Shown: positions 39,535 to 54,119 of the stretch, piece by piece | Layout: each line of letters opens with the position of its first letter | How positions within the stretch are numbered: the first letter of the stretch is position 1 | Origin: an uncultured Pseudomonadota bacterium | Lineage (GTDB): Bacteria > Pseudomonadota > Alphaproteobacteria > RF32 > CAG-239 | NCBI GenBank assembly: GCA_949290295.1 | Contig: CASERH010000014.1 | Coordinates: 1 to 54,119 of the forward strand | Reading direction: 5' to 3' | Length of the DNA stretch: 54,119 bases | Position numbers and translations under genes: made by a program | Notes under the pieces: model-generated | Database searches by the model: none | Told to the model about the DNA's origin: nothing | Seen by the model: the letters and a program-made list of their open reading frames with translations, nothing else

Positions 39535-39759
39535 TTATTTTTCTATTTCCAGCTCAACGGCCTCTGCCGGCATAATTGTTGACACTGCGTGCTTATATAT
39601 CAATTGTGTATGTCCGTCGCGGCGCAATAACAATGATGTCTCATCATACCAGGTGATTATTCCCTGCAGTTTTACCCCGTTTACCAAAAATACGGTAACT
39701 GAAATCTTGTTCTCTTTTAAGTTATCTAAAAAATCGTTTTGGACATTTTGTGACATCAC
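39535..39759 (-). CDS. hfq: RNA chaperone Hfq
   Basis: [11 protein letters not shown] and [13 protein letters not shown]. Confidence 0.97.
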
Positions 39760-52299: not shown

Positions 52300-53022
52300 A
52301 TGAATTCTTTTTTATTGCGCAGATTAGTCCCCTTCTTTGTTGCCGCCGTGGTGATTGAGTTTTTAACCTTTGCCCTTTTGCTGTTGGCCGAGCGTGAGTA
52401 TGTGGACTGGGCTTTTATGCCCATGATTAAGACCGTGGGGGTATTGATTAAAACCACAACAATCTCTTTTCTATATATGATGTTGCCTTATGCCCTCTAT
52501 CTTCTCATTCTTCCTGCAAAATATGTTAATTCTAAATTTGACCGTTTTATAGCAGCGGCGAATTTTAGTATCTTCATCTTCCTTAACCTATTTGAAGAAA
52601 CCATGTCTTTGGTCTTTTGGGAAAAATTCTCTGCTGCTTTTAACTTTATCGCGGTTGAATATCTGATCGATATGCGCGAAATTGCCGATGATATCTCGCA
52701 GAACTATCTCTTTATTGCCTATATTGCCGCGTTAATCATCATCACTTTTCTCATTGTGCGGAGGGCAGAAAAATTTCTGCTTACCTCGGTGCCGTACCCA
52801 CGCTGGTTTAAGCGCACAATCTATACCGCCATTTATGTCTTGTGTTGTGCTTTGATTTATATCAATACTGATGAGCAAGAGCTGGAAATTAATGAAAATT
52901 ACTTCAACAATGAGCTTTCAAAAGATGGAACTTATAGCCTGGTGCGCTCGCTTTGGAAGAGTGACTTAACTTACCAAGACTTTGTTGTCAAAAATAAAGA
53001 CATCCTAACGTCAACAAAATAG
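52300..53022 (+). CDS. Membrane domain of an LTA-synthase/sulfatase family protein, without the catalytic domain
   Basis: Five TMs; FWEKFSAAFNFIAVEYL and NELSKDGTYSL; stops about 24 aa later. Confidence 0.7.
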   Translation: MNSFLLRRLVPFFVAAVVIEFLTFALLLLAEREYVDWAFMPMIKTVGVLIKTTTISFLYMMLPYALYLLILPAKYVNSKFDRFIAAANFSIFIFLNLFEETMSLVFWEKFSAAFNFIAVEYLIDMREIADDISQNYLFIAYIAALIIITFLIVRRAEKFLLTSVPYPRWFKRTIYTAIYVLCCALIYINTDEQELEINENYFNNELSKDGTYSLVRSLWKSDLTYQDFVVKNKDILTSTK

Positions 53023-53063
53023 AAGTATTTTTGCAGTTTTTTCTAAAATATACAAAAAACGTC

Positions 53064-53092
53064 TTGACAAAACTTGTTTTTGAGGGTATACC
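53064..53092 (+). promoter_or_regulatory. Sigma70 promoter of non-coding unit 1
   Basis: TTGACA-N17-TATACC. Confidence 0.6.
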
Positions 53093-53097
53093 CTGTT

Positions 53098-53392
53098 TAG
53101 TTTGTTAAGTTTTTAGATAGATTGTGTTTTAGTCAGAGGTGTGAGAACAGGGTTCGTGCAGTAAGGAATTCGCTACTCCTCAGTTGGGACTCTCCTTCAT
53201 CTCTGACTTTTTAAGATATAAAAGCCCGGTGGATTCAATGCTTCTTTCGCACCCGGCTTTGGAGAGTGTGTTACCCCCTTCTTTTGATTGCGGTTAACCA
53301 TTCTCCTTCGTAAAAGCACCCTTCGATGCTTTCCTGCTAATTTTTTGTTGTGTGAGGAGAACAACGTTGTGAAACGGTATCTCCTCTTTTTT
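53098..53392 (+). ncRNA. Candidate multi-hairpin ncRNA, unit 1
   Basis: Five consecutive stems ending in GAGGAGA/TCTCCTC-TTTTTT; no credible ORF. Confidence 0.55.
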
Positions 53393-53514
53393 ATTTTTAA
53401 ATTCTCTAAAAAATAGTTGACAAAATTTCAGAAATGTGTTTTATAGGCCCTCTTTTTTATTTTTAAATTCTCTAAAAAATAGTTGACAAAATTTCAGAAA
53501 TGTGTTTTATAGGC
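53383..53514. repeat. Perfect 66-bp tandem duplication containing a TTGACA element
   Basis: 53383-53448 is identical to 53449-53514. Confidence 0.96.
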
Positions 53515-53943
53515 AGTATTGAAAAATATAAGTATGCCTACAATTATCTTAATAAAGAACCGGGGCAACCTAAAAAACTAACCCCAACTTTAAAACTTCA
53601 ACCCTCGGTTCTTTTTTACATAAAGGTTCTACATTATCGACAGCTTTGTTACAGAAATTATCTTGGGTTAAACTTCAAATCTGCTGCTATGTGGAACCTT
53701 TTCAAAATTTGCCGGGACGGAAACATTCTAACCATAACGCTGCCATTGTATTTTGTATTCGTTTCTGTTCCGGCGCCCTACGGAGCAACCACCGCTTCGG
53801 CTGTAGTTTGGCTCCGAAACTATGCTGAGTAAGGTTTTGGGTTAACCTGCTCGGCACCATAAACTGGTTTCGAACCAGTTCTCAGTTTTCTTTAGCCATA
53901 TTTTGGAGCACCTCATGTCGTGAGACACGGGTGCTCATTTTTG
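53510..53943 (+). ncRNA. Candidate multi-hairpin ncRNA, unit 2
   Basis: Seven or eight consecutive stems of up to 14 bp with + strand G-U pairs, ending in a GAGCACC/GGTGCTC hairpin and a T-rich tail. Confidence 0.6.
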
Positions 53944-53947
53944 TAAC

Positions 53948-54119
53948 AAGAAAACTACCGGCTAGGCCGGTAGTTCCAAAGAGCTTACAGCTTTACAGAT
54001 AAAAAACTCCTTTGCTAAAATAAAGTGACGGTCTGGCAACTGTCTAATAAAAAGCAAAGGAGTTTTTTTATGAACACACATACAATAGCACACACAACAT
54101 GGAATTGTAAATACCATGT
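53948..54119 (+). mobile_element. IS200/IS605-family element, left end (partial)
   Basis: Subterminal hairpin AACTACCGGC-TAG-GCCGGTAGTT; AAAAAACTCCTTTGCT/AGCAAAGGAGTTTTTT stem covering the RBS. Confidence 0.85.
54070..54119 (+). CDS. tnpA: IS200 Y1 transposase, N-terminus (runs off the right edge)
   Basis: MNTHTIAHTTWNCKYH matches the characteristic IS200 N-terminal HTxWxCKYH. Confidence 0.88.
   Translation, partial: MNTHTIAHTTWNCKYH

Follow-up and report, generated by a model that had tools for sequence, protein, structure and literature searches.

The unit 2 locus

We analyzed a 54,119-nucleotide (nt) stretch of DNA, referred to below as the window, which is the whole of contig C14 (accession no. 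CASERH010000014.1) in the genome assembly of an uncultured alphaproteobacterium of the RF32 lineage (GCA_949290295.1; 1.46 Mb, 43% G+C, 60 contigs; designated G000). Near the end of the window, downstream of recO, kdsA, pagP, and a gene for a predicted membrane protein, lies a segment that we call unit 2 (Table 1) and interpret here as a gene for an undescribed small RNA (sRNA), strongly structured and ∼425 nt long; that it is a real structured RNA gene of the + strand we consider highly probable. It is preceded by another structured unit, unit 1, and followed by the start of an IS200-type insertion sequence (IS). A second copy of unit 2, 84% identical, is present in the same assembly (C37:34-541), where dut and thyA come next, encoded on the other strand, and the 99 nt upstream are identical between the two copies. 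Throughout, C numbers denote contigs of G000, G numbers denote genomes of the genus, L numbers denote loci of relatives, and X numbers denote DNA sequencing runs.

Unit 2 has its own promoter, of the sigma-70 type, and its own intrinsic terminator, both in the same orientation as the + strand fold described below. The promoter block (TTGACAAAATTT..ATGTTTTAT) is the best-conserved block of the locus across species, far more widely conserved than the sequence of unit 2, and across species a terminator follows it 280 to 440 nt downstream; terminators capped by GUGA are also found in orthologues. The RNA would start at about position 53517, past the promoter and not at 53510 as a preliminary description of this DNA had it. 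From this promoter-to-terminator anatomy, together with the fold and the conservation set out in the following sections, we infer that unit 2 is transcribed as one RNA. A similar promoter (TTGACAAAATTTTCAAAATATGTTTTAT) lies at about position 10892 of C17 (− strand), upstream of an apparent protein gene of ∼125 codons, and the promoter block is therefore not RNA specific.

Table 1. Features of the unit 2 locus, with mean pairwise identity among five close alleles where determined (nt, nucleotides; bp, base pairs; aa, amino acids; ORF, open reading frame; MFE, minimum free energy)
Feature	Coordinates	Strand	Description	Identity
Predicted membrane protein	52300-53022	+	240 aa; no Pfam family	
Unit 1	53098-53392		Structured RNA with own TTGACA promoter at 53064 and GUGA-capped terminator; z = −3.54	
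Promoter-block duplication	53383-53514	+	Two exact 66-nt tandem copies, 53383-53448 and 53449-53514, 100% identical	
Unit 2 promoter	53483-53511	+	TTGACA 53483-53488; T-rich −10 region (TTTTATA) at ∼53505-53511	
Unit 2	53517-53942	+	Putative structured RNA gene; predicted start	
5′ leader	53517-53553	+	Partly paired with the 3′ linker (AAGUAUG.CUA/UAG.CAUAUUU) when the RNA is folded by itself (MFE)	
H1	53554-53614	+	12-bp clamp, AAAGAACCGGGG 53554-53565 / CCTCGGTTCTTT 53603-53614; 37-nt loop	
H2	53622-53701	+	13-bp clamp, 53622-53634/53689-53701; encloses 54 nt	
H3	53711-53774	+	14- to 15-bp clamp, 53711-53724/53761-53774; 36-nt loop with CUGCCAU at 53740-53746	
H4	53781-53816	+	Outer 6-bp helix CGGAGC...GCTCCG; inner helix capped by UUCG	
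H5	53823-53856	+	Hairpin with conserved loop UUUUGGGUU	
H6	53862-53880	+	Perfect 8-bp hairpin AACTGGTT/AACCAGTT; conserved in the close group only	
Candidate seed UUUUCUUUAGCCAUA	53886-53900	+	Conserved; unpaired in the centroid fold	
Intrinsic terminator	53907-53942	+	GAGCACC/GGTGCTC, inner GUC-GUGA-GAC, then U5	95%
Clamp strands				89-97%
H4 to H6				86-93%
Loop 1				79%
Loop 2				41%
Loop 3				55%
IS200-type element, start	53945-54119	+	STnc490 (RF01405) at 53953-54060, 68.4 bits; tnpA-like ORF from 54071 leaves the contig	
Small ORF family, examples	L020:3027-3428; L021:3046-3420; L034, L047, L031, and others	− (L020, L021)	100 to 135 codons	

Folding and covariation

The + strand of 53510-53943 folds to −127.0 kcal/mol, compared with −96.9 ± 5.5 kcal/mol for 100 dinucleotide shuffles (z = −5.47), and none of the 100 shuffled sequences folded as well. 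The stem coordinates in Table 1 were read from the sequence, and the minimum free energy (MFE) fold of the same segment gives every listed helix, in agreement with the preliminary description, which had placed stems at these positions and proposed selected RNA structure on the + strand. That description had also held that the six non-Watson-Crick pairs of the four long stems are without exception G-U on the + strand, and a hand count returned the same six (one in H1, one in H2, and two each in H3 and H5), which are therefore C-A mismatches on the − strand. The − strand folds well too (z = −4.59), and the + strand is the more stable of the two in 14 of 14 orthologous RNAs, five of which are close kin, by a mean of 6.0 kcal/mol. 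We take the + strand to be the RNA strand because of the G-U pairs, this uniform stability bias, and the direction of the promoter and terminator.

Covariation was assessed in a MAFFT alignment (A2) of seven RNAs, namely, the five close alleles together with those of G005 and G011, from which the misaligned H1 was omitted. RNAalifold predicted 77 pairs in this alignment, with compensatory change in 27. For the 70 pairs of H2 to H6 and the terminator, 89.8% of the 481 alignment cells are paired, and both-sided changes occur in 25 of these pairs, against 7.8 ± 2.1 in 500 column shuffles, none of which reached the observed count, and against 5 to 10 pairs in slid controls with partners shifted by one to three columns; these figures are not probabilities, the sequences being few and related, but the slid controls preserve that relatedness and are still clearly lower. 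The covariation supports the fold and indicates that the RNA structure of unit 2 is under selection.

The individual parts of the RNA differ in how they are built and kept. Spacers of 7, 9, 6, 6, 5, and 27 nt separate successive helices. The loop of H1 (CAACCUAAAAAACUAACCCCAACUUUAAAACUUCAAC) contains no G, and its G content is 0 to 2% in the five close alleles. Large loops had been described for the long stems, but that of H2 is not open: its 54 nt fold into inner helices of their own, the sequence of which varies among alleles; 89% of the alignment cells of the H2 clamp are paired, with compensatory change in three pairs, and in the H3 clamp 7 of 14 pairs show such change. A pyrimidine-pyrimidine mismatch persists at one fixed place in the inner duplex of H4 (CUACCGC/GCCGUAG); it is C.U in the window and in L015/L016 and C.C in the C37, L017, L019, L020, and L005 copies. 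The 5′ strand of this duplex is one U short in the window copy (column 18 of alignment A3), and G014 retains the duplex with the hairpin loop closing its other end. The H5 loop UUUUGGGU is likewise a structured element that is kept across species. Pairing between the 5′ leader and the 3′ linker is weakly supported, with a single G-U change in L016 and a broken pairing in the C37 allele.

Variable loops, mosaic alleles, and conserved words

The clamp strands are far better conserved than the loops they enclose (Table 1; the 3′ strand of H1, at 70% as aligned, was misaligned by MAFFT and is excluded). The preliminary description had pointed to related genomes as a place to look for arrays with conserved stems and variable or shuffled loops, and such alleles do occur: that of G024 is a mosaic with C37-type loops 1 and 2 and a window-type loop 3, and a contig of run X3 joins a window-type loop 2 to yet another loop 3. 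These mosaics fit a history in which diverged alleles would have recombined at the conserved stems.

The contigs of four DNA runs were compared with the locus. In X1, a 4,681-nt contig at a depth of 14.8 holds the membrane protein gene, unit 1, the promoter, a C37-type unit 2, and dut, and the sole contig with window-type loops is 166 nt long, at a depth of 3.2. Because these depths and gene orders favor the C37-type copy at the locus, the unit 2 of the window is more likely to be the allele of a coresident strain assembled onto C14 than a paralogue.

An unbiased screen of 5- to 7-mers in 10 representative species identified a small number of words that recur within the otherwise variable RNA. 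TGCCA is present in 8 of the 10 (2.1 expected), TGCCAT in 6 (0.73 expected), TGCCATA in 5 (0.23 expected), TTCTTT in 9 (3.2 expected), and TTTTGGG, which corresponds to UUUUGGG of the H5 loop, in 5 (0.26 expected). In context, the TGCCA and TTCTTT words form the element UUUCUUU(U/A)GCCAUA, located either within a loop or in the linker that leads to the terminator. At L025, ACUAAC-type words occur up to five times in one loop, and the repeat search found no direct repeat inside 53515-53943 of the window.

Distribution in the genus

The unit 2 locus is syntenic (kdsA-pagP ... dut-thyA) in CAG:495-type gut Alphaproteobacteria, and the relatives recovered with dut are metagenome-assembled uncultured Alphaproteobacteria from the animal and human gut, including “Proteobacteria bacterium CAG:495.” The closest species, G024, shows the full order of membrane protein gene, unit 1, promoter, unit 2, dut, and thyA. 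Within the 56 genomes of the genus, BLAST detects unit 2 in 4, and matches to an H4-H5 covariance model occur in 7. An RNA of similar build lies at the same locus in 14 species-level genomes (G000, G024, G061, G062, G005, G011, G045, G003, G002, G014, G009, and the records behind L018, L025, and L064). The 14 RNAs that we folded, from 13 genomes, have one to four stems of 9 to 21 bp enclosing 29 to 69 nt, followed by small hairpins and a terminator, and two of them (L005 and L009) have an extra long-range helix that closes most of the RNA. Among 11 dut loci read in detail, the RNA was seen in 9 and not in 2; at most of the other ∼40 loci an ORF of 100 to 135 codons or another gene abuts dut, and the RNA was not seen there, where no sensitive search was made. 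A degenerate 25-nt H4 pattern had no match in metagenome contigs and yielded no further alleles. To judge from these comparisons, the architecture of unit 2 is retained while its sequence drifts past BLAST detection within one genus.

Many species of the genus have, between dut and the RNA locus, an ORF that belongs to a family of its own (...YAKPR.I...HEAVKA...GW.VN...; examples in Table 1). It has no Pfam family, and tblastn found no relative of it in G000.

Neighboring elements and assembly

Unit 1 has 77% identity in G024 and no Rfam match, and at the G045 locus (L020) there is an upstream unit with a similar terminator. The 240-aa membrane protein was seen, among the loci checked, only in close relatives and in G005. 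The 66-nt block that is duplicated between the two units consists of the terminator tail of unit 1, an A/T-rich stretch, TTGACA, and the −10 region, and its second copy would drive unit 2. No X1 contig spans the junction of the duplication, which may therefore be an assembly join of two alleles; we regard such a join of strain alleles as probable, rather than two tandem promoters. On the other side, the junction of unit 2 with the IS200-type element is not bridged by contigs of the DNA runs examined, and IS200-type sequence stands beside several different flanks in these contigs and is therefore multicopy.

Exclusion of known RNA families

A search of the whole window with Rfam 15 (4,227 models) returned only two tRNAs and STnc490 at threshold and none on units 1 and 2; with expectation values (E) of up to 10 allowed over 52900-54119, unit 2 received only chance-level matches, such as mir-55, which scored 19.5 bits where the threshold is 53. 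Unit 2 was considered and rejected as RNase P, 6S RNA, and transfer-messenger RNA (tmRNA), for which the genome has copies elsewhere: C17:5145-5549 (290 bits), C20:22854-23007 (63 bits), and C37:3088-3443 (207 bits), respectively. The last is a two-piece (permuted) tmRNA gene that lies ∼2.5 kb past the C37 copy of unit 2 and encodes the tag ANDNNVAPVALAA. An array of clustered regularly interspaced short palindromic repeats (CRISPR), which the preliminary description had set aside, is rejected here as well: such an array would have direct repeats of 24 to 48 nt between unique spacers, 53515-53943 contains no direct repeat of any kind, and the sole repeat is the 66-nt promoter duplication. A CsrB/RsmZ-type sponge, which would have many GGA-bearing loops and a csrA/rsmA partner gene, was rejected on the grounds that a search of the 100%-complete genome did not detect csrA and that the word screen returned no GGA-bearing word. 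A transposon guide RNA (TnpB/IscB omega RNA or IS110 bridge RNA), which would be encoded next to or inside its nuclease or recombinase gene, was rejected on the grounds that the only neighbor of this kind is the start of an IS200-type tnpA and that orthologous loci are without an IS. In the portions of articles returned by a full-text literature search, no riboregulator is described for RF32/CAG:495 gut Alphaproteobacteria, a taxon that is merely listed there. We regard unit 2 as an undescribed RNA family; its general kind is known, but its build, with long clamps, large loops, and strain-mosaic loops, is unusual.

A possible base-pairing regulator

Unit 2 probably has a role in regulating other genes. 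Our tentative reading, toward which we lean without holding it firmly, is that it is a base-pairing regulator that masks start codons of the AUGGCNAAAGA type. The RNA would act in trans through Hfq-assisted base pairing; its 12- to 15-bp stems would be clamps that hold G-poor stretches single-stranded and stable, and the short single-stranded elements that outlast the turnover of sequence would be its contact points, chief among them UUUCUUU(U/A)GCCAUA. This element is the complement of AUGGC(A/U)AAAGAAA and therefore could cover a start codon and the first four codons. In the window, the conserved single-stranded element UUUCUUUNGCCAUA could do the masking. An hfq gene is present in the genome (PF17209, 91.9 bits; window 39556-39744, − strand), neither csrA nor proQ was detected in the 100%-complete G000, and the 3′ end of unit 2 combines a U-rich single strand (AUAUUUUGG), a stable hairpin (53907-53936), and a U5 tail, the module to which Hfq usually binds.

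The best candidate target in this genome is tuf, the gene of elongation factor Tu (EF-Tu), which in G000 starts with AUGGCAAAAGAGAAG; all 11 genomes read share the same 15 nt at the start of the ORF. In RNAduplex, the 49-nt segment around the element pairs with the two G000 tuf starts at −34.4 and −34.0 kcal/mol, ranks 2 and 3 among 2,751 candidate start regions of G000 (mean, −19.3; standard deviation, 4.2), and the region at rank 1 belongs to a 109-codon frame without a Shine-Dalgarno sequence. In other species, we counted how many of 500 background start regions scored at least as well as tuf. The loop 3 element of G003 can form ∼24 pairs with tuf around a 3-nt bulge (a hand-derived pairing), with an RNAduplex energy of −34.1 kcal/mol that 6 of 500 regions equaled, and the counts were 6/500 for G009 and 8 to 16/500 for L064. 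The two tuf copies of G000 (C10:1-219 and C38:1-219) both lie at contig ends and are truncated after 73 codons, as is typical of a repeat collapsed in assembly. Nothing relevant on sRNA control of tufA/EF-Tu appears in the portions of articles that the literature search returned.

Several results weigh against this reading, and most of them bear on tuf. In sister species, scored against their own, identical tuf, the counts were 62 to 68/500 (G024), 231 to 240/500 (G061), and 24/500 (G062), and the pairing is at background level in G005, in G014, and at the second G011 site. When the 49 nt before the terminator were taken without regard to the motif, pairing with tuf was significant only in G000 (1 to 3/400) and G009 (2/400). 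A less strict alignment test with shuffled controls reached significance for just one of the two tuf copies of G000 (1 to 2/300); for the other G000 copy and the other genomes, 12 to 251 of 300 shuffles matched the score. The link to tuf is also partly circular, because it was found through the motif itself. As for the RNA, the element is present in one or two copies per RNA and missing in 1 or 2 of 10 species, in the MFE fold it can pair with the RNA's own 5′ leader, and 425 nt is long for an Hfq-associated sRNA. The consensus promoter scan did not list the unit 2 promoter, because its −10 region is imperfect, and no RNA run with unit 2 sequence was among the 19 runs found. All told, tuf is rather unlikely to be a true target.

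Across the first-match loci of 30 genomes, gene starts that are perfect complements of the element included no recurring orthologous gene; in G000, such starts are those of a cytosine methylase-like gene, a gene of the OmpA family, and two others without a Pfam family above the cutoff. Eight further element matches that look noncoding have neither promoter nor terminator, and target predictions for loops 1 and 3 gave no coherent gene set. A match of the 5′ strand of the terminator to the 3′ end of G014 16S rRNA (10 of 11 nt) was dropped, as its score of 17 compares with a shuffle maximum of 22; G000 has no assembled 16S rRNA gene.

Alternative functions

A possible though unlikely alternative to start-codon masking is a protein-binding sponge or scaffold, in which the G-poor loops, the H4 duplex, and the H5 loop would dock Hfq or another RNA-binding protein and titrate or assemble it. 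The persistence of sequence-specific structured elements amid change (the H4 duplex with its mismatch, retained even in G014, and the H5 loop) would suit such a role, as would the low G content of loop 1 (0 to 2%), the ACUAAC-type repeats of L025, the presence of hfq, and the strong promoter, which suggests abundance. However, no motif occurs many times per RNA as it does in known sponges, neither csrA nor proQ was found in the complete genome, the conserved neighbors include no gene for an RNA-binding protein, and the H4-H5 module is confined to 7 of 56 genus genomes, whereas the clamp-and-loop build is wider.

We likewise see only a limited chance that unit 2 has some other role as a structured RNA, whether as part of an unknown ribonucleoprotein, as a ribozyme, or as a cis element for the convergent dut-thyA transcripts. 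Its size and structure resemble those of large bacterial RNAs of unknown function, and its position is fixed and convergent with dut, but its sequence turns over too fast for a catalytic core, with BLAST detection limited to 4 of the 56 genomes. Nor is unit 2 likely to act as an antisense RNA or a terminator for dut, because the 100- to 135-codon ORF separates the RNA from dut in many species.

Two further readings place specificity in the variable loops, and both seem improbable. The clamped loops may be swappable specificity modules, in which recombination at the stems, for which the mosaic alleles speak, would give strain-specific antisense loops and unit 2 would be a multiguide regulator or defense RNA, possibly cut at its stems into pieces that each present a loop, with its effector encoded elsewhere. 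The preliminary description had offered either one structured noncoding RNA or a precursor cut at its long stems into loop-presenting guides, which would direct an effector to strain-varying nucleic acid targets; the first is what we find, in a single ∼425-nt unit with one promoter and one terminator, and the second we consider very doubtful, with no result here pointing to processing into separate guides of 60 to 80 nt. The contrast between stems at 89 to 97% identity and loops 2 and 3 at 41% and 55% in the five close alleles would be expected of guides, as would alleles that are mosaics of loop types. The best complements of loops or unit in the organism's own genome, among the matches listed, nevertheless span 15 to 17 nt with chance E values, no loop matches any of 50,697 phage records at an E value of ≤1, and 72,556 plasmid records give only a 23-nt chance-level match in three Acinetobacter records (E = 0.4). 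No effector gene lies nearby, the neighbors being housekeeping genes in synteny, and loop 2 is itself folded. RNase III usually cuts duplexes of roughly two helical turns, and the 12- to 15-bp stems are shorter than its usual substrates.

A protein-coding gene or a DNA-level element such as mobile inverted repeats is scarcely credible, and coding was rejected, in line with the preliminary description: a 110-codon open frame exists (53500-53832), the − strand folds well, and an IS200-type element adjoins unit 2, but the frame begins within the promoter, indels of 1, 4, 5, and 8 nt break it between copies, none of three ORFs overlapping unit 2 has a Pfam match, the G-U mismatches are on the + strand only, compensatory changes preserve RNA pairs, and orthologous loci carry no IS.

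Significance and comparison with known systems

With unit 2, the RF32/CAG:495 gut Alphaproteobacteria, represented by metagenome assemblies only, gain an RNA that occupies a fixed place in the chromosome and is probably abundant; it is confined to a single uncultured genus and is useful for studies of RNA evolution and for better search models. Were start masking to hold, and above all were EF-Tu a target, unit 2 would act as an RNA that directly restrains the most abundant translation factor, and were its loops swappable modules, they would constitute a new route to diversify RNA regulators.

Of the systems with which unit 2 may be compared, the one that adjoins it on the same strand, the 5′ untranslated region RNA of IS200 (STnc490, RF01405; 68.4 bits against a threshold of 56), is a separate element after the unit 2 terminator, and the syntenic loci of relatives carry dut there and not an IS. 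Unit 2 resembles OLE, ROOL, GOLLD, raiA, and HEARO, Rfam families without a known function, in being large, highly structured, and of narrow host range, but it matches none of them, is less conserved in sequence, and has no characteristic gene partner. With the CsrB/RsmZ and CrcZ sponges it shares several hairpins that display single strands and, probably, high expression; it differs in having no many-times-repeated motif, csrA was not found, and there is no Rfam match. AbcR1/2, NfeR1, and similar alphaproteobacterial Hfq-dependent sRNAs are ∼100 to 150 nt long and carry their seeds in hairpin loops. They come from the same bacterial class as unit 2, and in the case of unit 2 hfq is present, pyrimidine-rich single strands could cover ribosome-binding or start regions, and another sRNA-like unit, unit 1, stands in tandem; those sRNAs are in Rfam, however, and unit 2 matches none of them and is three times their length.

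The closest analogy for a possible mode of action is RNAIII of Staphylococcus aureus (RF00503), a regulatory RNA of ∼0.5 kb that has a promoter and terminator of its own and folds into many hairpins, the single-stranded loops of which pair with several mRNA start regions. The likeness is one of analogy, as there is no homology and no Rfam threshold match on 53100-53943 and the organisms belong to different phyla. Compared with RNAIII, unit 2 is without an internal peptide gene and instead presents strain-variable loops of 30 to 55 nt held by clamps of 12 to 15 bp.

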